Below are positions 230 to 27,038 of a stretch of DNA of 32,225 bases, piece after piece. Numbering within the stretch: the first letter of the stretch is position 1; the number at the start of each line of letters is the position of its first letter. The stretch lies in IMG/VR virus record IMGVR_UViG_2541047764_000008; one strand, 5' to 3'. Position numbers and translations under genes: made by a program. Under the pieces are notes generated by a model. That model had not been told where the DNA came from. It saw only the letters and a program-made list of their open reading frames with translations, and ran no database searches. The stretch comes from a virus (taxonomy: Duplodnaviria; Heunggongvirae; Uroviricota; Caudoviricetes).

Positions 230-1108
230 TTACTCATAGGTAGCAGATGAAATTTCAATCATTGACGATCTTTCAAAAATTTGCTTACCATTATTAAGAA
301 ATGTAGGGGACGAGAGAAGGGCATCGAGAGTCAACCATTGCCATAGATCGATCGTATACCTAGATTTAGGATAATCCTTGGATCGGGCATTCAGTAAGTC
401 ACGTTTAATCTCTATCATTTCATGCAATGATAAATTTTTAAAAGTAGCATTCCTGACCAATTCCTTAACTAAGCTAATTGCCTTCGCACTGAACGTGTCT
501 AGTATGCCGAATTTTTTAACATGAAATAACACTCTTTTATATTCAACTGTATTTTTCTCATAGTTAATTTGAAAATAAATTACATTATCCATTTCAGAAT
601 ATACAGCCGTTAACCAATTGTAATTATAGAACTGATCAAATAACGGATGAATTAATTGATTTTCTTTTGAAAGAGAGAAATATTTAGATTTCATTCTATT
701 GCAGTAATCACAAGCAGGGATAAGATTATTATAGGATATAGAAAGGGATGGAAAATCTTCTTTTGGTAAAAAATGATCTAACGTACTGGCTTCACCAATG
801 TGACATAACAAACATTTTTTATTCGGGCTTCGGCGAAGTAATTCATCATAATATTTTCTAGGCTGTGTTCTTTTTTTTGACAGCCTTTCATTATAAAGCC
901 TTAATAACTCAGACGAATCAAAACCTGCCGTCTTTGATATATCTTTAAATTCATAAAGCAGTCCATAAATTGCATGAATTTTGTAAATCTTGTGACAAGC
1001 CCTCAAGTATTCCCCTTGATCCTTTTCTACTTGAGTAAAGTCTCTATTGCGCCGCCCTACTACGCAACTCCTATATACATCATCAAATTTAACATGCATC
1101 CTCTTCAC
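230..1108 (-). CDS. HNH-nuclease-domain protein, second gene of a two-gene ATPase + HNH cassette (Septu PtuB-like architecture)
   Basis: 292-aa ORF with an HNH-type motif at residues ~99-140 (CLLCH...DHFLP...NNLIPACDYCNRMK). Its GTG start overlaps the upstream ATPase stop as GTGA; an ATG at 1099 is an alternative start. Markedly AT-rich by eye. Confidence 0.6.
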   Translation of the reverse strand: MKRMHVKFDDVYRSCVVGRRNRDFTQVEKDQGEYLRACHKIYKIHAIYGLLYEFKDISKTAGFDSSELLRLYNERLSKKRTQPRKYYDELLRRSPNKKCLLCHIGEASTLDHFLPKEDFPSLSISYNNLIPACDYCNRMKSKYFSLSKENQLIHPLFDQFYNYNWLTAVYSEMDNVIYFQINYEKNTVEYKRVLFHVKKFGILDTFSAKAISLVKELVRNATFKNLSLHEMIEIKRDLLNARSKDYPKSRYTIDLWQWLTLDALLSSPTFLNNGKQIFERSSMIEISSATYE

Positions 1109-2583
1109 CCTTTATTTTTTATAGCAGAGTAAACAACAGCACGCCCTTCCAAGCCGATCTGATTATTATATGCATTAAACACTGCACCAGCACTTGTATA
1201 TTTTTTGGAATCCTCCTCCAATAGAGAATAGAAGCCTGACTTTCGCATATCAAGGTTAAAAACTTCAGATGTAATTTCTCCTACCCCCTCGCCGAATGTT
1301 TCTATTGTTGGCCGCTGAAATTCAGCCTCTATATCGCCTGAGCGAAACATTTTCCAAATACAAGCTTTAGGTGTTTCTTGAAGAACTACTGGAGAGTGAG
1401 TGGCAATCACAGCCATCCCATTGTTTTCTTTCAGTATCTCAGACAACGTTCTAATAAATGCGGAAAGTAAAGGAGGATGCAAATGATTCTCTGGCTCATC
1501 GAAGATACATATTGTTTTATTTTCTATTAACTCAATAACATGAGTAATGTAGTATATTACCGCCGCATGCCCTGAGCTCAACGATTTAAAGATGGTTGTT
1601 GATGCATGTGTAAACTCCTCTTGGCTAACAGTGATGAGATTTGAAAGTCCTAAATCCTTAAAATTCACATCAACTTCTAAAGTCTCTATTATTCTAGTCC
1701 ATGTTCCTTTTTTTATTTCAGATCCATATATGCAATTATATAATGACTTGGAAAAATCATTAGCCAAATCATTGTTTATATCCTTTAGTTCTCCGCTACC
1801 TTGTTTATAGAGACCAATATATTTTTTCTTTGTTTGAGTTGTGCTAAACCTAACATCATTAAAATCAACATTTTCAAAAGGTTTATCAAAAACACTTAAT
1901 GAAAAATACAATAACAAACCAAAATCATAAACTGAGACAGGATCACCATTTATCTTTGTTACAACATAATTACTTTTATCGATATTTTCAACAATTGTTC
2001 TTAGTAAATGGCTTTTCCCTACCCCATTACGCCCAATGATTACATGGACATTTTTTGGCGGTTTAGAATCAGATTCCACGATAAAATCCGGCGAAACACC
2101 ATTCTCATAATTAACACGAAAACCGAAATGTCTCAATGAAACGCCAGACTGCAAAATGTCTCTAAACTGCATAACACTTGATATACTTACATATCTAGTG
2201 AGTGAGTCAACAAATACACTTTCATCCCTTACATCTTCAAAAATATTTTCATCATAAACGATATCTCTCAACCTAGTTAAAAGTTTCACCCGAAATTCTT
2301 GAGGCAAATTCTTTAAGGCCGAATAGTATTCTGGAGATTGTCCAAGTGAAAAATAATCATTAGCCAGACTATCAAACTCTGCATCTAACTTTTTATATGT
2401 ATGAACTGATTTCTCTTGTCTCTTAAATCCTATTTTAACCTCTCCAACCTTTACAACATTACTACCATGAGAATAATGTAGTAAAAATGAAGTTTCAAAT
2501 GAAAAATCATTCCAATTGGTTATTGGAGTTAGATATATTATAAATGTCGAATTTGATTGAGGAGGGCCAATTTTTATAAACAT
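1105..2583 (-). CDS. ABC-type (AAA_15/21-like) ATPase with ~180-aa N-terminal extension, first gene of the ATPase + HNH cassette (OLD/PtuA/GajA-like ATPase fold)
   Basis: 492-aa ORF with Walker A GRNGVGKS (184-191), signature-like LSSGH (335-339), Walker B ICIFDEPE (358-365) and H-loop ATHSP (393-397). GGAG sits 6 nt upstream of the ATG. The start is only 37 bp downstream of the int stop on the same strand. AT-rich by eye. Confidence 0.65.
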   Translation of the reverse strand: MFIKIGPPQSNSTFIIYLTPITNWNDFSFETSFLLHYSHGSNVVKVGEVKIGFKRQEKSVHTYKKLDAEFDSLANDYFSLGQSPEYYSALKNLPQEFRVKLLTRLRDIVYDENIFEDVRDESVFVDSLTRYVSISSVMQFRDILQSGVSLRHFGFRVNYENGVSPDFIVESDSKPPKNVHVIIGRNGVGKSHLLRTIVENIDKSNYVVTKINGDPVSVYDFGLLLYFSLSVFDKPFENVDFNDVRFSTTQTKKKYIGLYKQGSGELKDINNDLANDFSKSLYNCIYGSEIKKGTWTRIIETLEVDVNFKDLGLSNLITVSQEEFTHASTTIFKSLSSGHAAVIYYITHVIELIENKTICIFDEPENHLHPPLLSAFIRTLSEILKENNGMAVIATHSPVVLQETPKACIWKMFRSGDIEAEFQRPTIETFGEGVGEITSEVFNLDMRKSGFYSLLEEDSKKYTSAGAVFNAYNNQIGLEGRAVVYSAIKNKG

Positions 2584-3666: not shown

Positions 3667-4005
3667 TTATTCACACAACGCTATAGCTTCACTGAAAATC
3701 GGGCCAATATCAGCGCTTTCTAATGAATCGTTAGGGTCTTTTTTAAGAACTTCTTTTAAATCTCGCCCTTCCATTTTTCCTGATTTGACGGCGTTTTTAG
3801 CCATACCGCTTAGGGGGTATCGTTCATCCGTATCAATGTCATAAACAAAAACGTAGTGACTATTTACACAAGATACCTTTGCATGCTCAAAGGTCAGCGG
3901 CCATTTATCACCAAAAGATTTAATATCAATCTCTTTGAACTTTTCAGCGGCAAAGGTTGAGGAAGAGAGTGCAATACAGATTATTCCAAATAAAAACTTT
4001 TTCAT
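3667..4005 (-). CDS. Small secreted/periplasmic protein (moron) between repressor and integrase
   Basis: 112-aa ORF with a classical N-terminal signal peptide (MKKFLFGIICIALSSSTFA followed by AEK) and two Cys in the mature part. AT-rich relative to flanking int and cI. No family assigned. Confidence 0.55.
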   Translation of the reverse strand: MKKFLFGIICIALSSSTFAAEKFKEIDIKSFGDKWPLTFEHAKVSCVNSHYVFVYDIDTDERYPLSGMAKNAVKSGKMEGRDLKEVLKKDPNDSLESADIGPIFSEAIALCE

Positions 4006-4014
4006 TACTGCTCC

Positions 4015-4878
4015 TTAAACATGCTTTTCCAAGGTAAAGATAACTGCACCTGATGGTGTGATATCAGAGAGATTACATTCAAACTCAGCAGACTTATTTG
4101 ATAGCCTGACCTTTCCACCTGGCATTCTGATTACGTCAAAAATATCGAGCGCACCATCAATGCCAATAAGCCAACGACCATTTCCTATCTTTGAGTTAGA
4201 ACAATCAACAAGCCAAGATGCGCCAACTCCATCAATAAAGACCAACTCATCAATGTTTGCAGGAACCATTGAAAGGTCTGGAGTCCAACGCCCAATATCT
4301 TTTAACTCACCAGCTTCAAGACGACATTTTCTTACTGTTAAGGCGTTAAGTGATTCACCCTCTTTGCTGTCTCGCATTTGGCCTTTTCCTGTAGATAGCC
4401 ACTCTAACGATACGCCAGTATCGAGTGCGCAGGTCACAACCACATCGCCAGGGAAGAAGTCACGCCTAACCCAAGTGCTAATAGTACCGGAAGAAATACC
4501 TAATAAATCACCAAGCTCTTTTTGCATCGTAAAACCATAAGCATCCAGAATCCTACGCAAAACGGTTTTACCGCCGTTCGTCATAATCTCGTCATAAAGC
4601 TCTTTGCCTTTTAACTTGCAACCGACTCGCCCATGATTTGCATTTGCAAGCTCACCACTTACAAGCCAATTAATATCAGCGCCCGTGTCAAGACAACACC
4701 TAACTATGATGTTGCCAGGTATTGCATCGCGTTGAACCCAGCCGCTAACGCTATGTTTCGCGATTCCTAGCAGGTCAGCCAAATCCTTTTGCATCTTGAC
4801 GCCATAGGCTGACATTAAGCGCTCTAATACGCCATTTGACGCACCTATGCGCCACTGAACATCAAGCTCAGAACTCAT
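4015..4878 (-). CDS. cI: CI-like immunity repressor with tandemly duplicated N-terminal HTH domain
   Basis: 287-aa ORF. Residues ~17-75 and ~107-165 are an obvious internal repeat (LERLMSAYGVKMQKDLADLLGIAKHSVSGWVQRDAIPGNIIVRCCLDTGADINWLVSGE versus LRRILDAYGFTMQKELGDLLGISSGTISTWVRRDFFPGDVVVTCALDTGVSLEWLSTGK), each resembling the 186-type CI HTH module, followed by a C-terminal domain. It is divergent from the early operon. Confidence 0.7.
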   Translation of the reverse strand: MSSELDVQWRIGASNGVLERLMSAYGVKMQKDLADLLGIAKHSVSGWVQRDAIPGNIIVRCCLDTGADINWLVSGELANANHGRVGCKLKGKELYDEIMTNGGKTVLRRILDAYGFTMQKELGDLLGISSGTISTWVRRDFFPGDVVVTCALDTGVSLEWLSTGKGQMRDSKEGESLNALTVRKCRLEAGELKDIGRWTPDLSMVPANIDELVFIDGVGASWLVDCSNSKIGNGRWLIGIDGALDIFDVIRMPGGKVRLSNKSAEFECNLSDITPSGAVIFTLEKHV

Positions 4879-6898: not shown

Positions 6899-9124
6899 AT
6901 GACAAAATATACTTTTGCTTTTCCGTGGAATGCCCCACGGTCGGCAATAGTCAGTCCATATCTTACCTACGACCAACAGTATCGCCGCGACCGTATGTTC
7001 GCGGCTTTGCTGCATGCGAAAAAGGTGCTTTCTCTCCAGCCCGACTGCGTGCGGTTAGATGTTTATCGCACTGCTGCGGTGCTGGAGCAAAATCAGGGCA
7101 GTCAACGAACCAATGCCTTTTTAATCAGCTTCTGCAAAAAGGCATTGCCGCGTCTTGAACTGGTCGCAAAAAAATACGAATGCGCGGGTATCAACAGCAA
7201 TGTATCAACCGCTGTTTTTGGAGGTCATTTTGATACCCAGCTTATGCAATATCTGGCGTCTCGCATGGTTAATATGGTCGCCCGATATAACCGCCTCCCG
7301 GACATGTCGCGCGCTGATGTTGACCTGTTGGCCGCTGATATTGCTAATTTCATTCGTGGTGAACTTGCCAACATTGATGACAACGGATTCGGCGAGCTTA
7401 AAACGCTGTACACCTGGTATATCCGTGCTGGCTTTATTTCCCTCCAATTCAACGTTATCCCACCACATTGGGATCGGGTTGCAAAAAAATATGTCGGCGC
7501 GGATGAAATCGCACCGGCTATCGCCAAGATGTTTAACGATGGGTGGTGGCGTGGTCGTTTGCGCCGTGTTGCGGCTACTTGGCGCGAACACCTGCAAATT
7601 GCAGTCGGCAACGTCAGCAAGAAAAAAAACACCTACGCGAGTAAAAACTGCGTGACTGACTGGCGTGAACAAAAGCGCCGCACTCGTGAATTTCTCAAAG
7701 GTCTGGATCTCGAAGACGAAGACGGCAACCGTATCAGCCTGATTGAAAAATATGATGGCTCAGTTGCTAACCCTGCCATTCGCCGCTGTGAGCTCATGAC
7801 CCGCATTCGTGGGTTTGAAAACATCTGTAATGAGCTCGGTTATGTTGGTGAGTTTTACACTCTAACCGCGCCGTCAAAATATCACGCCACGACTAAAGCC
7901 GGGTACCGTAACAGCAAATGGAGCGGTGCTAGCCCGGCTGACACGCAAAACTATCTAACCGGTATCTGGGCGCGTATCCGTGCCAAACTGCATCGGGAAG
8001 ATGTCCGTATTTTCGGTATTCGTGTCGCCGAACCCCATCACGACGGCACTCCACACTGGCACATGCTGATGTTCATGCTGCCGGAAGATGTTGAATATGT
8101 TCGATCCATCGTCCGTAAATACGCATGGAAAGAAGACCGCCACGAACTGAAAAGCGATAAAGCCAAAAAAGCACGTTTCCACGCCGAGGCCATTGACCCG
8201 GAGAAAGGCAGCGCAACCGGCTATGTTGCTAAATACATCTCAAAAAATATCGACGGTTATGCTCTCGATGGTGAAACCGATGATGAAAGTGGTGAACTGC
8301 TGAAAGAGACAGCCCCCGCCGTTTCAGCATGGGCAGCGCGCTGGCACATCCGTCAGTTTCAGTTTATCGGTGGTGCGCCGGTGACGGTCTACCGTGAGTT
8401 GCGTCGCCTCGCTGATACCGAAACCGCGCACGGCCTGAGCGTTGAGTTTGCCGCCGTCCATGATGCCGCCGACGCAGGTGACTGGGCTGGTTATGTTAAT
8501 GCGCAGGGTGGGCCGTTTGTCCGTCGCGATGATTTACAGGTGCGTACACTGTATGAACCCCGTACCGAGCTTAATCAGTACGGTGAGGAAACGGTATGTA
8601 TTAAGGGGGTCTACGATTCCTCCATAGGTGCAGGAAGCCCGATTTTAACCAGGCTTACTCAGTGGAAGATTGTTCCGAAGCGTGCTGTTGATTTGGCCGT
8701 TGACCTTCAGGACGGCAAAGCCGTCCCTCGGAGTTCTGTCAATAACTGTACGGGAAGCGAAAGCGATCCACCGATACTGGATTTAACAAAACCACTGAGT
8801 CGGCGTGAAAGACGAGAATTGACCAACCGACTCAGGAAGCAAAAGCCAGCAGCACGGCGAAAATTCATCCACGGAACGGATGAGCAAAACGCAGCTATAG
8901 CTAAAACTATCGACGAAATACATCTGACAACCGGCATTAATATCAGCCGGGGCGAAGCCCTGCACCTGATGGCCGGTGGTAAAAGTTGTTTTGATGGTAA
9001 ATGGCTACGCGGAACGGCCAAAGGAGAAATATTTTCCGCAGCACCATCGCATGAGGCTAAAGCTCGGAAAATCCTTAATCGTGTTGCGGCGATGGCTGAA
9101 GCATCAAAACCAATACATGAGTAA
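6899..9124 (+). CDS. A: Replication initiation protein A (rolling-circle HUH endonuclease)
   Basis: 741-aa ORF with an HUH-type motif (GTPHWHMLMF) and a downstream tyrosine motif (GYVAKYISKN). Size and position match P2/186 gpA. The exact start is uncertain; 6899 is the first ATG of the ORF. Confidence 0.9.
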   Translation: MTKYTFAFPWNAPRSAIVSPYLTYDQQYRRDRMFAALLHAKKVLSLQPDCVRLDVYRTAAVLEQNQGSQRTNAFLISFCKKALPRLELVAKKYECAGINSNVSTAVFGGHFDTQLMQYLASRMVNMVARYNRLPDMSRADVDLLAADIANFIRGELANIDDNGFGELKTLYTWYIRAGFISLQFNVIPPHWDRVAKKYVGADEIAPAIAKMFNDGWWRGRLRRVAATWREHLQIAVGNVSKKKNTYASKNCVTDWREQKRRTREFLKGLDLEDEDGNRISLIEKYDGSVANPAIRRCELMTRIRGFENICNELGYVGEFYTLTAPSKYHATTKAGYRNSKWSGASPADTQNYLTGIWARIRAKLHREDVRIFGIRVAEPHHDGTPHWHMLMFMLPEDVEYVRSIVRKYAWKEDRHELKSDKAKKARFHAEAIDPEKGSATGYVAKYISKNIDGYALDGETDDESGELLKETAPAVSAWAARWHIRQFQFIGGAPVTVYRELRRLADTETAHGLSVEFAAVHDAADAGDWAGYVNAQGGPFVRRDDLQVRTLYEPRTELNQYGEETVCIKGVYDSSIGAGSPILTRLTQWKIVPKRAVDLAVDLQDGKAVPRSSVNNCTGSESDPPILDLTKPLSRRERRELTNRLRKQKPAARRKFIHGTDEQNAAIAKTIDEIHLTTGINISRGEALHLMAGGKSCFDGKWLRGTAKGEIFSAAPSHEAKARKILNRVAAMAEASKPIHE

Positions 9125-9198
9125 TTCATATCCATATCATGCACATACAGCAATCGCTCTATTCGTTTTTTTTCTTCCCATCTTTTGCCAATACGTGC

Positions 9199-9218
9199 TA
9201 CTGTATAAATATACAGTA
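9199..9218 (+). promoter_or_regulatory. LexA operator (SOS box) overlapping a promoter upstream of the Tum/DinI-like module
   Basis: TACTGTATAAATATACAGTA is a near-perfect match to the LexA consensus TACTG(TA)5CAGTA. A -35-like TTGCCA sits at 9185-9190 and the box overlaps the -10 region. A GGGAGG RBS and the ATG at 9238 follow. Confidence 0.75.
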
Positions 9219-9237
9219 ACCCTATGGGAGGGATTTC

Positions 9238-9420
9238 ATGGTTGGCGAACATTTCAGCCGAACGCAGCAAAAGTGGGCTTGTGTGCAATTTATTGCCGAG
9301 GTATCTCTGATTGCAAACTGCAAGCCATCAGACTTAAAGCTCGCGCTCACTCTCATTGCAGACCTAGCAAACAGCGAAAATAACGAAACCGAAGATGATA
9401 ATTTTTATAAGGCTGATTAG
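9238..9420 (+). CDS. Small SOS-regulated ORF, possible N-terminal part of a Tum-like antirepressor
   Basis: 60-aa ORF with a strong RBS (GGGAGG, 5-nt spacer) directly downstream of the LexA box. It is in the same frame as the DinI-like ORF, separated only by TAG (9418-9420) plus one codon. Confidence 0.45.
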   Translation: MVGEHFSRTQQKWACVQFIAEVSLIANCKPSDLKLALTLIADLANSENNETEDDNFYKAD

Positions 9421-9423
9421 ATT

Positions 9424-9657
9424 ATGAGAATCAATATCACGTTGGATAAAGAGCAAAAAATTAGTCAGGCAACGTTGGATGCACTTGAGGCTGAGCTGTA
9501 CCGCAATCTTCAACCTATTTACCCAAAGACTGCTATCCGCATTCGTAAGGGCTCAGCTAATGGCGTTGAGTTAAGCGGTTTGAAACTGGACGAAGATAAA
9601 AAACGAGTAATGGAAATCATGCAGCAGGTATGGGAGGACGATAGCTGGCTGCATTAA
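9424..9657 (+). CDS. DinI-like protein (possible C-terminal/Tum72-like part of a Tum antirepressor)
   Basis: 77-aa ORF (MRINITLDKEQ...WEDDSWLH) resembling E. coli DinI in length and in its acidic Trp-containing C-terminus. It lies downstream of the LexA-controlled promoter. Confidence 0.7.
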   Translation: MRINITLDKEQKISQATLDALEAELYRNLQPIYPKTAIRIRKGSANGVELSGLKLDEDKKRVMEIMQQVWEDDSWLH

Positions 9658-9726
9658 CAAACGCCGTCGGTGCTGAATCTTGCTTTCAGTGCTGGCGGGG
9701 TTGAAACTGGCTCCGAGAGGCGTTAG
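9658..9726 (+). repeat. Imperfect direct repeat, copy 1 (~70 bp)
   Basis: AACGCCGTCGGTGCTGAATCTTGCTTTCAGTGCTGG...GGCGTTAG; shares the first ~40 nt almost exactly with the copy at 10062-10130. Confidence 0.6.
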
Positions 9727-9850
9727 TTCTACCTTTCAAACTTTCTCGATGTTTTATTGGTTACACACCGGTGATTAATGGGACGTTACCTTAGAGGATT
9801 TTATAGTGGCGCTTTGACAGCACTGAATAAAATTCATTGAGGGCGATAAT

Positions 9851-10060
9851 ATGCATCGACTACCGGGCGAAATTCCGCAGCACAAAACTAAAAGCATAAA
9901 ACTGATGGCTATCGTTCATCGCTTGCAGACGATAATGGTCAATGAGAACCTGACGCCAGCGGAATTGGTCGGGTGTGCAGAAATAGTCAGGGATAACTAC
10001 GATAAGCTGAACGATATCAGCAGGCCGACACAATATGCGCCACCACCATGTCGAAGATAG
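9851..10060 (+). CDS. Hypothetical small protein flanked by direct repeats
   Basis: 69-aa ORF with a GAGGG RBS 7 nt upstream of the ATG. No recognisable motif. Confidence 0.35.
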   Translation: MHRLPGEIPQHKTKSIKLMAIVHRLQTIMVNENLTPAELVGCAEIVRDNYDKLNDISRPTQYAPPPCRR

Positions 10061-10061
10061 C

Positions 10062-10130
10062 GAACGCCGTCGGCGCTGAAACTTGCTTTCGGTACTGGAG
10101 GGTTGAACAACGAGTCCCTCTAGGGGTTAG
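10062..10130 (+). repeat. Imperfect direct repeat, copy 2 (~70 bp)
   Basis: AACGCCGTCGGCGCTGAAACTTGCTTTCGGTACTGG...GGGGTTAG; a partner of the copy at 9658-9726. Confidence 0.6.
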
Positions 10131-10272
10131 TCTGTTCCGTAGAGATTGGCCCAAACCGGCACTATTAAAGCCGGTTTTCGTATGTCCAATCTAAAGAATG
10201 GGGGCTGACATCCCACCATCAGATTTGTGTTATTTTAGTGCTACTCATTCGTCATTAGACATTGTAAGGGCA

Positions 10273-10989
10273 ATGTATATGAAACCAAGCACACACTGCG
10301 TTTATTGCGGTGTTCTCATGAATAAGGTTGAAAATCACCCCCACTGCCGCTCAGTTGAACACATGATTCCGCAAGTTTCAGTCTCCATTCATAGAACCAA
10401 CGGCGAAGGTGATTTCTATGTATGCAAAAAGTGCAATGGCGATAAAAGCCGAATTGACGAGGTGTTAGGTGTCATTTGCCGCATGGTAGGAGAGCACTCA
10501 ACAGGCAGCTTTGATGCTGTTAATAAATTCCATAATGCGCTTAAAAGAAAAGACTCGAAATTTCGTGAAGCATTCCAGAGTGTTAGGCATACAAAAAAAG
10601 GTGCGCAGATAACATTACCCCTAAATGGTAGGGAGATTTACCAATACGGCACCTGGTTAGCCAAGGGAGTATTTTTCTTAGAGTATGGGCAATTGTTGAC
10701 TGTAGATAAATTAATTTGGATTAATATCGTTCGCCACGATGAAGTAATGGCTATTAAAGAAATGTATAGAAATGAACGTGGCTCTGAGGCATTTGATGAT
10801 TTATCGAAGAATAGCAACATTCCAAATATTAATGGCGAGTCGTTTCTGATTGTTGGCCAGGATGCCCGAGAAATGTTTATTTGCTTCAATAGAGTAATGA
10901 TGTTTCATATAAAGATACTGGATAGAACGTTTATTAATCAAAAAAAATGCAAAAAAGCCCTACTCAATCTGGAAAAAAGGGTTCGATAA
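10273..10989 (+). CDS. HNH-nuclease-domain protein with uncharacterised ~170-aa C-terminal domain (moron in the A-to-cos accessory hotspot)
   Basis: HNH motif at the N-terminus (CVYCG...HPHCRSVEHMIPQ...FYVCKKCNGDKS). AT-rich by eye and sharply different from flanking phage DNA. Start uncertain: ATG at 10273 or 10279; the track's longest form starts at 10198. Confidence 0.55.
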   Translation: MYMKPSTHCVYCGVLMNKVENHPHCRSVEHMIPQVSVSIHRTNGEGDFYVCKKCNGDKSRIDEVLGVICRMVGEHSTGSFDAVNKFHNALKRKDSKFREAFQSVRHTKKGAQITLPLNGREIYQYGTWLAKGVFFLEYGQLLTVDKLIWINIVRHDEVMAIKEMYRNERGSEAFDDLSKNSNIPNINGESFLIVGQDAREMFICFNRVMMFHIKILDRTFINQKKCKKALLNLEKRVR

Positions 10990-11012
10990 GATAAATAAGA
11001 TGTAATGAATGT

Positions 11013-11034
11013 GTGCATGCCACTGCATTTTTTT
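11013..11034 (+). terminator. Weak terminator candidate downstream of the HNH moron
   Basis: Short hairpin (TGCA/TGCA stem) followed by a T7 run (11028-11034). Confidence 0.3.
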
Positions 11035-11134
11035 GCATGCGTTGATCCAACCGCCAAAACATAAGGAGTACCGGTAGTAGCTTAGCTAAAGCGAGGTCAT
11101 GCAACTGCATTAAAACCGACCCATAAAGCGGGCA

Positions 11135-11153
11135 GGCGTGGCGGGGAAAGCAT
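11135..11153. other. cos: cos-like 19-mer (candidate cohesive-end site of the P2/186 family)
   Basis: GGCGTGGCGGGGAAAGCAT closely matches the 19-nt cohesive end I recall for P2/186 (GGCG[A/T]GGCGGGGAAAGCA[C/T]). It sits in a non-coding GC-rich stretch upstream of the portal end of the late region, as expected. Confidence 0.5.
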
Positions 11154-11357
11154 TGCGCGCCAGCGGTGGTGCGTATTATTAAAAATTATCGTCTGAGAAC
11201 GTCGTGACGGCGCTGTAGTGGCCGGGTGTGATCGTGGGCGCGTGGTGCGTCTGTGGCGTGGTGCTAAAGGATGGGATCAGTTGCACAATTTTACGGTTTC
11301 GCTTTGGCTAATATCCATATTGAGACTTTATGTTCCCCACAACAGTTGGAGGCTTTA

Positions 11358-11582
11358 ATGGATAACTATCATATTACAAAAGATGGCGATAAGTGGAAGT
11401 TGCAAAAAGAGGGCAATGACCGCCCTAGCAAGACCGCGCCCACAAAGGCCGAGCTGATTAAAACAACATCTGAGTTTATGTCGAACAAAACAGGCTCGGT
11501 CAAAATTCACAAGGAAGATGGGAAAATTCAGGAAGAACGCACTTATCAGAGAAAAGATGATCCTAAAAAGTCTAAGGGCTAA
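11358..11582 (+). CDS. Small conserved hypothetical protein (DUF2188-like)
   Basis: 74 aa from the ATG at 11358 with a GGAGG RBS 5 nt upstream. The pattern KDGDKWKL...G...IHKEDGKIQEERTY...DP resembles small DUF2188-type proteins (from memory). Confidence 0.4.
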   Translation: MDNYHITKDGDKWKLQKEGNDRPSKTAPTKAELIKTTSEFMSNKTGSVKIHKEDGKIQEERTYQRKDDPKKSKG

Positions 11583-11590
11583 CATAGCAA

Positions 11591-11611
11591 AAGCCGCCAA
11601 AATGGCGGCTT
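11591..11611. terminator. Palindromic hairpin between convergent genes (likely terminator for the leftward Q-P operon)
   Basis: AAGCCGCCA-aaa-TGGCGGCTT perfect 9-bp stem. On the minus strand it is followed by a U-rich run, immediately after the Q stop. Confidence 0.5.
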
Positions 11612-11620
11612 AAAAGGTGA

Positions 11621-22336: not shown

Positions 22337-22937
22337 CCGGCTATTACCCGTTGGCTCGTCGCCGCTGGAGGTCGCCGCCGCCGCTGCGTTCTCTGAGATT
22401 CAGCGCGTGCCGGTACCGCTGCGCACCCTGTGGAACTGGCGCACCTGCCCGGTAAAGCTGCTGCCGTATCTGGCGTGGGCGCTGTCGGTCGACAGGTGGG
22501 ATGAGAAATGGCCGGAGGCGACAAAGCGCAACGTCTGCGCGTCCTCGTTTTTCGTCCATCAGCACAAAGGCACCATCAGCGCATTGCGTCGGGTCGTCGA
22601 GCCGCTCGGCTTTCTGATTGAGGTGCGCGAGTGGTGGCAACTCGACGAGGAGCCAGGCACATTCCGCCTCGTTGTTGGCGTCCTCGACAGCGGCATCACT
22701 GACGAAATGTATCAGGAGCTTGAGCGCCTGATTGAAGACGCCAAACCGGCAAGTCGCCACCTGACCGGGCTGGCTATCAGTCTGAGCTCGACCGGCGAAC
22801 TGTATGTCGGCGCGGGATGCTATCACGGCGACGCGCTGACTGTTTACCCCTACACCCCCGAGGAGATTGTCGTCGGCGGTGAATATTACCCGGCCTCGGC
22901 CATCCATTTGATTGATAACCTGAGAGTGAACGCATGA
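22329..22937 (+). CDS. I: Baseplate/tail protein (P2 gpI-like)
   Basis: 202 aa; overlaps the J stop and H start; in the P2 I position. Confidence 0.8.
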   Translation: MNDRLLPVGSSPLEVAAAAAFSEIQRVPVPLRTLWNWRTCPVKLLPYLAWALSVDRWDEKWPEATKRNVCASSFFVHQHKGTISALRRVVEPLGFLIEVREWWQLDEEPGTFRLVVGVLDSGITDEMYQELERLIEDAKPASRHLTGLAISLSSTGELYVGAGCYHGDALTVYPYTPEEIVVGGEYYPASAIHLIDNLRVNA

Positions 22938-23914
22938 CCGCAAAATATTTTGCCATTCTGACCAATCAGGGCGCGGCGCGGCTGGCGAACGCGGCGGCAC
23001 TCGGTACCAAACTCAACCTGACGCAGATGGCCGTCGGTGATGCGAATGGTACGTTGCCGACCCCTGATCCGGCGCAGACGAAGCTCATTAACCAGAAACG
23101 CATCGCGCCGCTGAACCTGCTGACCGTTGACCCGGCCAATACCAGTCAGATTATCGCGGAACAGATTATTCCCGAGAATGAAGGTGGTTTCTGGATCCGC
23201 GAGATTGGTCTCTATGACGATGATGGTATTCTGATTGCCGTGGCGAACTGTCCGGAGACCTACAAGCCACAACTGCAGGAGGGAAGCGGTCGCACGCAGA
23301 CCATTCGCATGATTCTGATTGTGTCGAGCACATCGGCAATCACCCTGAAAATCGACCCGGCAGTCGTGCTGGCAACGCGCCAGTATGTCGACGACAAGAT
23401 TATCGAGGTGAAAGGATATGCTGATGACCTGATGAAAAAACATGTTGAGGCCGCCAATCCACACAAGCAGTACCCGTTAATCGCTAATGCTCTGAAAGAA
23501 ATGGTTGACGCGGGACTGGCCGGCGACGTTCTTAAAAACCTTGGTTTGGGAGAAGCGGCAAAACGGGATGTGGGGACAGGGGAAAATCAGATACCGGACA
23601 TGGCCTCTTTTGCCAGTGGTGATGGATGGATGAAATTACCCAACGGGAAAATCCTGCAATATGGTCGTGGTGCGGTTACGCCGACATTATCGACGCAAAC
23701 AATGAGAATTACATTCAGCATCCCTTTCCCCAAAAAAGCGGACTGCGCCATGCTTACTCATTCTGGTGATGGCGGTGCGCCTTTAGGCGCTGGGCGAGGG
23801 TTCGTGATGACTGCAGAAGGCCCAACGTTAACCGGCTTTAATTCTGCTTACAGAACGTCATCAACCAGCGACACGGTATCGATGAATTACAGTTGGTGGG
23901 CTGTTGGTGAGTAA
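22934..23914 (+). CDS. H: Tail fibre protein (P2 gpH-like) with short, switchable C-terminal receptor-binding region
   Basis: 326 aa. The N-terminal ~200 aa (MTAKYFAILTNQGAARLANAA...) is typical of the conserved P2-family fibre N-terminus. The C-terminal part begins at an invertase crossover-like site (23529-23554). Confidence 0.85.
   Translation: MTAKYFAILTNQGAARLANAAALGTKLNLTQMAVGDANGTLPTPDPAQTKLINQKRIAPLNLLTVDPANTSQIIAEQIIPENEGGFWIREIGLYDDDGILIAVANCPETYKPQLQEGSGRTQTIRMILIVSSTSAITLKIDPAVVLATRQYVDDKIIEVKGYADDLMKKHVEAANPHKQYPLIANALKEMVDAGLAGDVLKNLGLGEAAKRDVGTGENQIPDMASFASGDGWMKLPNGKILQYGRGAVTPTLSTQTMRITFSIPFPKKADCAMLTHSGDGGAPLGAGRGFVMTAEGPTLTGFNSAYRTSSTSDTVSMNYSWWAVGE
23529..23554. promoter_or_regulatory. 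hix/gix-like inversion crossover site (left), inside the tail-fibre gene
   Basis: TTCTTAAAAACC-TT-GGTTTGGGAGAA; the left half matches the Hin hix half-site TTCTTGAAAACC. The right half GGTTTGGGAGAA is identical to the inverted copy at 25439-25464. Confidence 0.65.
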
Positions 23915-23925
23915 TTTTATTCAGG

Positions 23926-24378
23926 GTGATTTATATGAACGAATATGTTTATAGCGCAAGGCATAATGCTTTTTTCCCTGTGGATATGATTGATAAATAT
24001 AAATCAGAGGGATGGGATTTATCAGACGCTAAGGAAGTAAATCAAAATATTATCAGTGAGTTTATGGCTGAACCGCCACAAGGAAAAATCCGTATTGCCG
24101 GAGATGATGGGCTGCCTGCGTGGGCAGATATTCCTCCACCCACGCATGAAGAGCTTATTGAAATTACTGAATCAGAAAGACAGCTACTAATTAACCAGGC
24201 CAACGAATACATGAACAGTAAGCAATGGCCCGGTAAAGCCGCTATTGGTCGTCTGAAAGGTGAGGAACTGGCGCAATATAATTTGTGGCTGGATTATCTG
24301 GATGCACTGGAGCTGGTTGATACCTCCAGTGCGCCAGATATTGAATGGCCTACGCCTCCGGCAGTTCAGGCCAGATGA
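23926..24378 (+). CDS. G: Tail fibre assembly protein (P2 gpG-like)
   Basis: 150 aa, AT-rich, with a Tfa-type C-terminus (...APDIEWPTPP...); directly downstream of H. Confidence 0.8.
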   Translation: MIYMNEYVYSARHNAFFPVDMIDKYKSEGWDLSDAKEVNQNIISEFMAEPPQGKIRIAGDDGLPAWADIPPPTHEELIEITESERQLLINQANEYMNSKQWPGKAAIGRLKGEELAQYNLWLDYLDALELVDTSSAPDIEWPTPPAVQAR

Positions 24379-24952
24379 CATCCGGCGCGGTGCTGGTATC
24401 TGTTGCCGTCACCGCGTCAATGTAATCCAGCACAGCGTTAAGTCTGGTTGTTTCTGCCTGCGTCAGTTTACGTCCGGCCTGCAATTTCAGTTGAATCAGA
24501 CTAATGGAAGCCATTGCAGCATCAATCAGTGACTGGCGCTGTGCTTCTGCCGCGTCTACTGCGGCGCTATGCTGTGCCTCAGTATCGGTCACCCATTTCT
24601 CACCATCCCATTTATCGTATGGCGTTAATGGGGCGATAGTGGTTGTATTTTCAGGGTAATCACCCGGAGCGGTGATTTCTTTTGATTCTCCTGTTTTGGT
24701 GCTATAGACCGTTTCACCGCGATGGTCTGGCACATATTCCCATGAATTTAAATCTACAGAGCGACAGATTGCATAACCAGCTTTATGTGTACCTGGTGCA
24801 TCCAGACAGGAACATGCCGGGATACCGACTCCGACAGCGAGATATTCAGTTGATGTAGAAATATATTCCCGCGTTTCGCCATCATAGTTATGTACGATGA
24901 TTTCCCCATCATTTAAAGCGTAACCGTCTTTTCCCAAAATAGCCTGTTCCAT
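24350..24952 (-). CDS. Alternative tail fibre assembly protein (U'-like) in the invertible segment
   Basis: 200-aa ORF on the opposite strand, convergent with G; the C-terminus (...TAPDVIWPELPEA) parallels the gpG C-terminus. Confidence 0.7.
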   Translation of the reverse strand: MEQAILGKDGYALNDGEIIVHNYDGETREYISTSTEYLAVGVGIPACSCLDAPGTHKAGYAICRSVDLNSWEYVPDHRGETVYSTKTGESKEITAPGDYPENTTTIAPLTPYDKWDGEKWVTDTEAQHSAAVDAAEAQRQSLIDAAMASISLIQLKLQAGRKLTQAETTRLNAVLDYIDAVTATDTSTAPDVIWPELPEA

Positions 24953-25447
24953 TTATGCAGCCCTCACAATGTAGTTAAATGCAATGTTTCGCGGGCTACC
25001 ATCACCGGCGCCGGAACTGACATGATTTGTTCTATCCATTCGTTTACTGTCATTTGTTGTTCCACTCCCATCCTTCCACGAATACAATAACCCGCCATCG
25101 CCAATGCTCAACTGCACCGCAAATACGGATGATGTACCTAATTCACCAACATCTCTAGCCATGAGTGGGTTCCCTGTCCATCCATGCATTTCATGGTTAT
25201 GTTCAAGGATAGATGCTGCCTGACTTGAAAGCAGCAGTCTCGCGGAATCAACACCTCGCCCATCATCCCACCCGCGAATAAACTCACCGCGCAAATCCGG
25301 TAATTTTAACTTTGGGTAAGCCTTTGCCAGTTTTGGGTACTCTTCGGCAGAAAAAGGTGCACCGTTGCATTTCAGCCAGCCTGTTGGTGGTGTGGCTGAA
25401 GGCCACGGAACAGGCACACCAACGGGTAACGCTGAGCCTTCTCCCAA
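24953..25447 (-). CDS. Alternative tail-fibre C-terminal receptor-binding segment (Sv'-like), promoterless in current orientation
   Basis: The open frame begins at the right crossover site with no ATG (the track uses a TTG). Inversion at the core dinucleotide would fuse H in frame: ...KNLGLGE-GSALPVGVPVPWPS... The PxPWP..GW...G..F..YP.L motif is typical of Mu/P1-type fibre variable parts. Confidence 0.65.
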   Translation of the reverse strand: MGEGSALPVGVPVPWPSATPPTGWLKCNGAPFSAEEYPKLAKAYPKLKLPDLRGEFIRGWDDGRGVDSARLLLSSQAASILEHNHEMHGWTGNPLMARDVGELGTSSVFAVQLSIGDGGLLYSWKDGSGTTNDSKRMDRTNHVSSGAGDGSPRNIAFNYIVRAA

Positions 25448-25464
25448 ACCAACCTTTTAGAAAA
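25439..25464. promoter_or_regulatory. hix/gix-like inversion crossover site (right)
   Basis: The plus strand reads TTCTCCCAAACC-AA-CCTTTTAGAAAA; its reverse complement shares GGTTTGGGAGAA and the central TT with the left site. It lies immediately upstream of the invertase remnant. Confidence 0.65.
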
Positions 25465-25518
25465 TGCAGATATTCCGTTCAGCTGGCATGATCCCGACTT
25501 TTTACCGGGTTATTTCTC

Positions 25519-25761
25519 ATGTTTATCGGTTATGTACGCGTATCAACAAATGACCAGAACATCGCATTACAGCGAAATGAACTGGAGTGCGCAGGATGTG
25601 AGCTGATTTTCGAAGATAAAATCAGCGGCAAAACATCAGACTGGCCGGGGCTAAAGAGGTTACTCAGAACCTTGTCAGAGGGCGATACGCTTGTGGTCTG
25701 GAAACTGGATCGCCTCGGGTATCTCAACGCAATACAAAAAATTTCCCGCATCAGTTGCTGA
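25519..25761 (+). pseudogene. Truncated serine DNA invertase (Hin/Gin/Cin/Pin family) remnant
   Basis: The first ~66 codons match the Hin N-terminus closely (GYVRVSTNDQN...GDTLVVWKLDRLG, including the catalytic Ser region). Similarity is then lost and the ORF stops after 80 codons; a full invertase is about 190 aa. Confidence 0.7.
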
Positions 25762-25859
25762 TGTCTCAATGTGTCAGACATCGCCCAACACTGACAAATA
25801 GCCCCTCAACAGACCAGCTAGGACAATAACACTTGCCCACTAACCACGGAGTTAACCGG

Positions 25860-27038
25860 ATGAGTGATTTTCACCACGGCGTGCAGGTGCTTGAGATTAA
25901 CGACGGCACCCGCGTCATTTCCACTGTTGCAACCGCAATCGTCGGCATGGTCTGTACAGCCAGCGATGCGGATGCGGCAACCTTTCCCCTCAACGAGCCG
26001 GTACTGATTACCAATGTGCAAAGCGCCATTGCGAAAGCCGGTAAAAAAGGCACGCTGGCCGCGTCCCTGCAGGCCATCGCCGACCAGTCAAAACCTGTCA
26101 CAGTTGTCGTGCGTGTTGCCGAAGGTACCGGAGAAGACGCCGAAGCGCAGACCATTTCCAATATCATCGGCGGCACGGATGAGAACGGTAAATATACCGG
26201 CATCAAGGCGCTGTTGACTGCCGAAGCAGTCACCGGCGTTAAGCCGCGCATTCTCGGCGTGCCGGGTCTCGATACCAAAGAGGTCGCAGTCGCACTTGCT
26301 TCGGTCTGTATCAGCCTGCGCGCCTTTGGCTATATCAGCGCATGGGGTTGTAAAACCATTTCCGAGGCGATGGCCTATCGCGAGAATTTCAGCCAGCGCG
26401 AGCTGATGGTCATCTGGCCTGATTTCCTTGCATGGGATACCACCACAAACGCCACCGCACCGGCATACGCAACTGCGCGCGCACTCGGCCTGCGTGCCTA
26501 TATCGACCAGACCGTCGGCTGGCACAAAACCCTGTCTAACGTCGGCGTGCAGGGTGTTACCGGCATCAGTGCGTCAGTGTTTTGGGATTTGCAGGCATCC
26601 GGCACCGATGCTGATCTGCTCAACGAGGCCGGGGTCACGACACTGGTGCGTAAGGATGGCTTCCGCTTTTGGGGTAACCGCACCTGCTCTGATGACCCGC
26701 TTTTCCTGTTTGAGAACTACACCCGCACCGCGCAGGTGCTGGCCGACACGATGGCCGAGGCGCACATGTGGGCGGTCGATAAGCCCATCACCGCATCACT
26801 TATCCGTGACATTGTCGACGGCATTAACGCCAAATTCCGCGAGCTGAAATCAAACGGCTACATCGTGGACGGTGAATGCTGGTTCGACGAGGAATCGAAC
26901 GATAAGGAAACCCTCAAGGCCGGGAAACTGTATATCGACTACGACTATACACCGGTTCCACCACTGGAAAGCCTAACCCTGCGCCAGCGTATCACCGATA
27001 AATATCTGGTGAATCTGGCCGAATCGGTCAACAGCTAA
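25860..27038 (+). CDS. FI: Tail sheath protein (P2 gpFI-like)
   Basis: 392 aa from the ATG at 25860 (MSDFHHGVQVLEINDG...); size and position match P2 FI. Confidence 0.9.
   Translation: MSDFHHGVQVLEINDGTRVISTVATAIVGMVCTASDADAATFPLNEPVLITNVQSAIAKAGKKGTLAASLQAIADQSKPVTVVVRVAEGTGEDAEAQTISNIIGGTDENGKYTGIKALLTAEAVTGVKPRILGVPGLDTKEVAVALASVCISLRAFGYISAWGCKTISEAMAYRENFSQRELMVIWPDFLAWDTTTNATAPAYATARALGLRAYIDQTVGWHKTLSNVGVQGVTGISASVFWDLQASGTDADLLNEAGVTTLVRKDGFRFWGNRTCSDDPLFLFENYTRTAQVLADTMAEAHMWAVDKPITASLIRDIVDGINAKFRELKSNGYIVDGECWFDEESNDKETLKAGKLYIDYDYTPVPPLESLTLRQRITDKYLVNLAESVNS

Follow-up and report, generated by a model that had tools for sequence, protein, structure and literature searches.

An invertible tail-fibre cassette beside a dead invertase gene in a P2-like prophage of Escherichia coli

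Introduction

Can a tail-fibre switch still turn once the invertase gene beside it has been destroyed? The question is raised by the fibre gene H of a 32,225-nucleotide stretch of viral DNA (Caudoviricetes; IMG/VR record IMGVR_UViG_2541047764_000008; hereafter the window), which by its gene content is a P2-like (Peduoviridae) prophage of E. coli. Two inverted recombination sites enclose a segment that holds two alternative fibre tips, and the serine invertase gene next to it has lost most of its length. A preliminary description, made from the letters of the window, had likened the segment to the G segment of phage Mu and called the switch probably locked, with an invertase acting in trans as the fallback. 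We find that the same deletion allele, and this very prophage sequence, have inverted in nature. The switch is likely to be an orphan, non-autonomous cassette of the Din family that is run by an invertase supplied in trans, rather than a frozen one.

Results

Two 26-bp crossover sites of the pix/hix type delimit the segment. The left site (23529-23554, plus strand) lies inside H, where it encodes ..VLKNLGLGE..; it reads TTCTTAAAAACC TT GGTTTGGGAGAA, with the central TT at 23541-23542. The right site (25439-25464, given on the plus strand) is centred on AA at 25451-25452, equivalent to TT on the opposite strand, and its reverse complement reads TTTTCTAAAAGG TT GGTTTGGGAGAA. The two sites are inverted with respect to each other, match at 21 of 26 positions, share the central TT and bracket 1,908 bp, which confirms the earlier claim of two inverted hix/gix-like sites bracketing about 1.9 kb. 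A repeat finder returned this pair as the strongest long-range inverted repeat of the region (21 nucleotides, 90% complementary, 1,882 nucleotides apart). A degenerate site pattern that also retrieves the sites of Mu and of e14, a cryptic prophage of E. coli K-12, matched the window at these two places only, against 0.00 expected from 100 shuffles. The locus thus has the pair of inverted, imperfectly dyad-symmetric sites of about 26 bp, with matching 2-bp cores, that is expected of the Din family. The repeats of the e14 P segment have been given as TTGGTTTGGGAGAAGG and CCTTCTCCCAAACCAA (PMC12529663); the inner parts of the sites here match the first at 15 of 16 positions (left site) and the second exactly, and the e14 sites, CTCTCGAAAACCTTGGTTTGGGAGAA and TTCTCCCAAACCAACGTTTATGAAAA, have the same core. 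All 23 related loci with the deletion allele described below have the same left-site 26-mer.

The constant N-terminal part of H (22934-23542, plus strand), about 203 codons with a match to Phage_tail_fib (PF12571, residues 1-150), stands outside the invertible segment. The whole gene (22934-23914) encodes 326 amino acids and joins this Peduoviridae fibre domain to the variable C-terminus now in the expressed position, a Gp53-like_C tip (23543-23914, plus strand; PF21882, residues 234-325 of H). Next comes G (23935-24378, plus strand), the 147-amino-acid assembly chaperone for the current tip (PF02413 Caudo_TAP, E 1.9e-31), which is identical to e14 TfaP at 60 of 106 positions. Convergent with G, and overlapping its 3′ end by 29 nucleotides, lies an alternative chaperone gene, G′ (24350-24952, minus strand), whose 200-amino-acid product is TfaE-like (PF02413, E 5e-33; 182 of 200 positions identical to e14 TfaE) and whose nucleotide sequence is the same as that of the tfaE annotated in strain UTME-7. 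The silent alternative C-terminus of H (24953-25450, minus strand) is a Collar-domain tip (PF07484, E 4.7e-15), identical to e14 StfE at 92 of 154 positions. Its open reading frame (ORF; 24953-25447, 164 amino acids) has no ATG, runs in frame out of the right-hand site and stands directly upstream of G′. These Pfam matches bear out the layout first proposed, with the current C-terminus and G on the plus strand and an alternative tip and assembly protein on the minus strand.

In-silico inversion at the central dinucleotides leaves the constant part of H unaltered and joins codon ~203 in frame to the Collar-domain ORF, giving an uninterrupted H of 368 amino acids in place of the current 326. A constant fibre N-terminus therefore faces two opposed sets of variable C-terminus and chaperone that fuse to it in frame, as in other members of the Din family. 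The in-frame fusion had been foreseen, and we judge the purpose proposed for it, alternative receptor-binding tips, to be right.

The invertase gene follows the right-hand site. An 80-amino-acid ORF (25519-25761, plus strand) matches residues 1-68 of the 193-residue Gin (E 1.8e-28) and is made of two remnants. The 5′ remnant (25519-25719, plus strand) comprises codons 1-67 of a serine invertase gene, through ..WKLDRLG (PF00239, residues 3-67). It is identical to PinE residues 1-67 at 56 of 67 positions (83.6%), to the invertase of phage pro483 at 59 of 67 and to Gin at 50 of 67. The 3′ remnant (25718-25761, plus strand), recognized by tblastn and by alignment with pro483, comprises the last ~12 codons of the gene in another frame, together with the stop of the 80-amino-acid ORF. 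PinE residues 171-181 align to 25718-25750 (I-S-T-Q-Y-K-K-F-P-A) in a frame that differs from that of the 5′ remnant, and nucleotides 199-236 of the remnant pair with nucleotides 510-547 of the pro483 gene. The lesion is an internal, out-of-frame deletion of ~311 nucleotides, with its junction at about 25717-25719 (GGATCGCCTCGGGTATCTCAACGC), and everything after ..LDRLG is lost: the remaining catalytic domain, helix E and almost the whole DNA-binding domain. Where a Din-family segment would be adjoined by a functional small serine invertase (~185-195 amino acids, with catalytic domain, helix E and C-terminal helix-turn-helix), the cassette's own invertase is, on its reading frames, a dead pseudogene. 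The preliminary description, in which the gene kept only its first ~66 codons, was right about the dead gene and about the part of Gin that it matches; the damage is not a plain 3′ cut, since the last ~12 codons are kept. We also considered the DNA behind the 5′ remnant as P2 G-terminator-like, which would make it a recombinant junction, and rejected this reading on the strength of the tblastn and pro483 alignments, which identify an out-of-frame invertase 3′ end.

The 5′ remnant carries a substitution as well. Its residue aligned with Gin Arg42, and so with Arg45 of gamma-delta resolvase, which we take to be an active-site residue, is changed from Arg to Trp. The correspondence between Gin Arg42 and resolvase Arg45 follows from numbering offsets (PMC4513852). 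Trp42 is found in every copy of the allele examined in which the codon can still be read, the exception being phage vB_EcoM-613R3, where a 4-nucleotide insertion shifts the frame just upstream. Beyond the gene, the deletion has left intact a region (25764-25792, plus strand) that aligns with the annotated activator-binding site of the P2 promoter pF, and with pro483, upstream of the tail sheath gene FI, whose start codon is at 25860.

Despite this lesion the segment is found in both orientations. In strains EC12 and EC15, from the same study, the flanks (1,646 and 3,910 bp) and the 1,867-bp segment are 100% identical, and the sole difference is that the segment is reverse-complemented exactly between the two central dinucleotides. 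CH425 and CH423, whose genomes are 5 bp apart in length, likewise differ by an exact inversion of a 1,863-bp segment between flanks of 1,650 and 3,914 bp; their remnant is additionally frameshifted at codon 44. A look-up of the FI protein, which occurs in 1,265 blocks of a large assembly collection, yielded a third pair (loci L016 and L025) with the same cassette inverted at 99.4% identity. In this pair a single-base variant of the inner half-site (GGGGGAA) keeps to its own arm, which places the exchange at or adjoining the site centre.

The flipped form of this particular prophage region exists too. The 368-amino-acid H predicted in silico is found exactly as ELH8344872.1, and E. coli HVH 130 has the 326-amino-acid form (EQR62802.1). 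The longer form is encoded on a contig (ABMXMK010000037.1 of assembly GCA_031939705.1) that has the identical constant part of H and agrees with the in-silico inverted window at 8,230 of 8,230 positions. This short-read contig ends at a point equivalent to window position ~23830, 290 nucleotides into the Gp53-like tip. The break suggests either a repeat of the tip elsewhere in that genome or mixed orientations in the sequenced culture.

With the segment present in both orientations despite a dead invertase, the label 'probably locked' is unsupported. It is contradicted both by strain pairs in which the same deleted allele occurs either way round in otherwise identical DNA and by the exact flipped copy of the H region. 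Given natural inversion of the deletion allele, the fallback of an invertase in trans is the better reading. A frozen relic would require that this particular host has no compatible invertase, leaving the minus-strand tip and chaperone as silent, decaying passengers. The pseudogene, the window's want of a second invertase and the ~15% of complete E. coli genomes without sequence like the 3′ part of pinE all fit such a state. However, the silent ORFs are intact, and their DNA is 100% identical to that of the UTME-7 cassette, which adjoins an intact recombinase; together with the flipped copy and the three pairs that share the allele and differ by inversion, this makes a relic improbable in our estimation.

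Inversion might also have come about with no serine invertase at all, by RecA-dependent homologous recombination between the short inverted repeats. The products of the two routes would be indistinguishable by sequence, and the arms do have 14-16 identical bases around the centre. Homology of 16-21 bp is, however, too short for efficient recombination in E. coli, yet with repeats of that length both orientations are found in both clonal groups checked (EC12/EC15 and CH425/CH423). The repeats are, moreover, bona fide Pin-type sites whose core is identical to that of the sites flipped by PinE and PinQ, and the arm-bound half-site variant of L016 and L025 also speaks for exchange at the site centre. 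We give the RecA route very little chance of being correct.

Din invertases require a Fis-bound enhancer in cis, and an element of this kind may have survived the deletion. We place the putative Fis-dependent recombinational enhancer, approximately and with no strand assigned, at 25540-25620 within the 5′ remnant, from homology and geometry. In gin the Fis sites are part of the coding sequence, towards its 5′ end (PMC3378877), and the Hin enhancer is ~100 bp from a hix site (PMC3798978). The distance from the site centre to the invertase start codon is 67.5 bp here, in Mu and in e14. The first 198 nucleotides of the gene are 69-80% identical to gin, pinE and the pro483 gene; within them GTATCAACAAATGACCAGAA is identical to gin and pinE, with one difference in pro483 and EC931. 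Because these 198 nucleotides are kept at the same spacing from the site as in Mu and e14, the enhancer-bearing stretch is most probably still present. A G-N13-C scan for the Fis pair returned conserved candidates at a spacing of 49 bp, against 48 expected, and we claim no exact Fis sites from it.

An enzyme to act on these elements could come from elsewhere in the cell. PinE, PinQ and PinR have all been reported to invert the e14 P segment, in a paper that also cites the action of Fin of Fels-2 on the Hin segment and of PinE on Mu G (PMC12529663). In P2-like prophages, flipping of fibre segments during growth in culture has been demonstrated (PMC4272514). The portion lost here corresponds to the 3′ two-thirds of pinE, and DNA like it occurs in 4,630 of 5,426 complete E. 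coli genomes (85%), at a median of 2 places in each. As such DNA is common and Pin enzymes act across segments, supply in trans is plausible.

On this evidence the switch would work as follows. Its own invertase was lost by an old internal deletion that spared the cis elements, namely both sites and the 5′ ~200 bp presumed to hold the Fis enhancer. A related serine invertase, encoded by another element in the cell (PinE of e14, say, PinQ or PinR of Qin and Rac, or the enzyme of another P2-, Mu- or P1-type element), would cut both sites at the central TT and rotate the segment by 180 degrees. Late transcription of V-W-J-I-H-G would then read the constant 5′ part of H joined to whichever tip end faces it, followed by the chaperone of that tip. 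Inversion would exchange the Gp53-like tip and G for the Collar-domain tip and the TfaE-like chaperone, and the expected outcome is a shift in the receptor specificity of the progeny virions. The identity of the flipping enzyme, the function of the enhancer and the change of host range are what we infer in this scheme.

Several points weigh against operation in trans. A tblastn search with PinE found no second invertase-like sequence, intact or otherwise, within the 32-kb window, which is all of the host genome that was considered. The trans-acting gene was not located in any strain pair, and one 50-kb stretch adjoining the CH423 prophage holds no invertase, only the core genes from yfiB to mltF. 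The flipped contig ends inside the segment, before the position of the invertase remnant. The inversions are differences between assemblies, from which no rate can be derived, and the enhancer function is predicted from homology and geometry only.

The deletion allele is fairly widespread. Of 5,426 complete E. coli genomes, 35 have the identical junction, as has the phage record vB_EcoM-613R3, and the exact 80-amino-acid remnant ORF occurs in 108 blocks of the assembly collection. Among the 23 loci with the junction, the remnant adjoins cassettes of both orientation types and of at least a dozen contents. This diversity beside one and the same junction indicates that cassettes have been swapped many times since the invertase died. 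Individual copies of the allele carry further independent lesions, a 1-nucleotide deletion in the lineage of ECE313 and CH425/CH423 and the 4-nucleotide insertion of 613R3, from which it follows that the gene is decaying as a pseudogene and that the deletion is old relative to these copies.

The arms of L016-L035 and related loci begin variously with GEAAKR.., GEGSALP.., GEGAPAI.., GELALAG.., GELSLAG.., GEARYV.., GEARFS.. and GEGAKLN... In 613R3 (ON470592.1, 1596-3163) the same deleted invertase, with its extra 4-nucleotide insertion, stands beside a shorter segment of 1,540 nucleotides; both arms begin with Gp53-type sequence (GEAAKRD.. and GEAAKRN..), and the minus-strand chaperone has only 131 amino acids. 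RefSeq annotates H in ECE313 and EC931 in two pieces, one a pseudogene for a truncated 'phage tail protein' and the other a 'gp53-like domain-containing protein'. This split seemingly reflects either poor automatic handling of fibre genes or disrupted copies.

A cassette identical to the one in the window is found in an unrelated setting. Window positions 23535-25457 and E. coli UTME-7 (NZ_CP169029.1) are 100.0% identical over 1,923 nucleotides, with 0 mismatches, and similarity falls to background within a few bases outside both sites. The UTME-7 copy lies in a non-P2 prophage with an e14/Mu-type baseplate (gp46/gp47/YmfQ-type) and adjoins an intact 187-amino-acid recombinase that is identical to the remnant here at only 38 of 67 positions. 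Identity that ends at the crossover sites in an unrelated prophage points to a recent exchange of the entire cassette at the sites or close to them. Cassettes evidently pass as units from one prophage type to another, with boundaries that, from these alignments, coincide with the crossover sites.

A more far-reaching interpretation is that the locus is a selected, non-autonomous orphan module, whose ~200 bp of invertase gene are kept for the enhancer and whose cassette is both flipped and swapped whole between unrelated prophages, at its crossover sites, by host-expressed Pin-family enzymes. We put this forward tentatively, as a possibility on the unlikely side. If it were true, and if host invertases such as PinQ are phage-induced, it would be the cell, not the prophage, that decides which fibre type the released P2-like virions carry.

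Dependence on host-resident invertases would also fit a cassette that mainly serves the host and not the prophage's own host range, and that a host-controlled Pin recombinase flips to yield a fibre-derived protein that blocks the adsorption of other phages. Such a defence, by StfE2, has been reported for PinQ acting on the P segment of e14 (PMC12529663), to which the cassette is most closely related. The prophage here appears complete, however, unlike e14, and has the full set of P2-type head, lysis, baseplate and tail genes at normal length. H also belongs to the late operon, and a scan of 22800-25950 for promoters and terminators gave no excess over shuffles; an internal promoter is thereby neither supported nor excluded. 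A close relative with the same allele, vB_EcoM-613R3, has moreover been deposited as a phage. We consider a host-serving role highly improbable.

The remainder of the window is consistent with a P2-like prophage. Its genes run from an integrase, a 186-type CI repressor and replication gene A to head, lysis, baseplate and tail genes, in the P2-like order int, CI, gpA ... Q P | O N M L X, lysis, R S V W J I H G, FI FII E T U D. Pfam matches cover int, CI, gpA, H, G and FI, the labels of the upstream genes being taken from the identical genes of the flipped contig ABMXMK010000037.1. The window DNA is 92-97% identical to Peduoviridae records.

Some neighbouring genes deserve mention. A Septu-like defence pair forms cargo at the prophage end (230-2583, minus strand), just outside the integrase gene. 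It consists of an HNH-domain ORF (230-1108, 292 amino acids; PADLOC PDC-M01B, E 8e-142) and, overlapping it by 4 nucleotides, an AAA_15/AAA_21 ATPase ORF (1105-2583, 492 amino acids; PADLOC PDC-M01A, E 2e-158, and PtuA, E 1e-133). A DUF2511 ORF (3667-4005) lies between the integrase gene and the CI repressor. The CI ORF (4015-4878, minus strand, 287 amino acids) has two separate matches to the CI helix-turn-helix PF07022 in addition to the CI C-terminal domain, and represents either a tandem helix-turn-helix repressor or an over-long ORF call. Variable cargo also occupies 9124-11620, between gene A and the portal gene. It includes a DinI-like ORF (9424-9657), a 263-amino-acid ORF (10198-10989) with no Pfam hit and weak PtuB-like PADLOC matches, and a DUF2188 ORF (11271-11582) that matches the candidate defence family PDC-S16.

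Discussion

The locus is a natural invertible host-range cassette that still flips after the loss of its recombinase, and it is fairly widespread, being present in 35 of the 5,426 complete genomes and in many drafts. In annotation, orientation should not be taken as fixed on the ground that the neighbouring invertase is dead, and tail-fibre and host-range predictions for such prophages should weigh both forms. The cassette also offers a clean natural substrate for two questions: how Pin-family enzymes cross-act on one another's sites, and whether the enhancer is the sole reason for which the 5′ remnant has been retained. It reveals no new mechanism. Din invertases have long been known to complement one another, and a specialist will not be greatly surprised. 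In limited literature searches we came across no description of this deletion allele, and nothing relevant on tail-fibre segments whose invertase is truncated or that lack one of their own.

Among described systems the P segment of e14 (stfP-tfaP / tfaE-stfE, pinE) comes closest. It has the same succession of constant fibre part, site, tip and chaperone, inverted chaperone and tip, second site and an invertase outside. The likeness extends to the proteins, given above for TfaE (182/200), StfE (92/154), TfaP (60/106) and PinE over the remnant (56/67), to the site cores and to the 67.5-bp spacing, and the P segment is known to be flipped by invertases of other prophages (PMC12529663). In contrast, e14 is a lambdoid remnant, whereas the P2-like prophage that houses the cassette here looks complete; the current tip, a Gp53-like domain, differs from StfP (31 of 112 positions identical), and the invertase is internally deleted.

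P2-like phages and prophages with an intact invertase (pro483, E. coli EC931 and the prophages of enteropathogenic E. coli E2348/69; Goldberg et al. 2014, PMC4272514) carry the same arrangement at the same position, between I/H and FI. The 5′ end of their invertase is identical to the remnant at 59 of 67 positions, and the pF region directly follows the invertase gene. They encode an enzyme of 188-197 amino acids, whereas here ~311 nucleotides are missing and the remainder is out of frame.

The Mu G segment with Gin, like the P1 C segment with Cin and the Salmonella Hin system, shares the architecture, the mechanism, the 26-bp sites, the invertase outside the segment and the spacing from site to start codon. 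The gix core, however, is TC/GA, against TT/AA here, and the tips and chaperones do not pass for homologues of Mu S, U, S′ and U′, with which local alignment gives at best short, weak matches (15/48, 18/46, 18/68 and 35/116 identical). The preliminary label 'Mu G-segment-like' is apt for the architecture only; the tips and chaperones barely resemble S and U and are closer to those of e14, as are the site cores. To judge from these comparisons, the switch works like Mu G and is not a copy of it.

Four features of the Din family are present: the sites, the split fibre gene with two sets of tip and chaperone, the in-frame fusion and real inversion. The functional adjacent invertase is the one that has failed. 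The locus is best described as a degenerate, probably trans-dependent Din-family tail-fibre switch in a P2-like prophage, and belongs to a kind of system that is already known.

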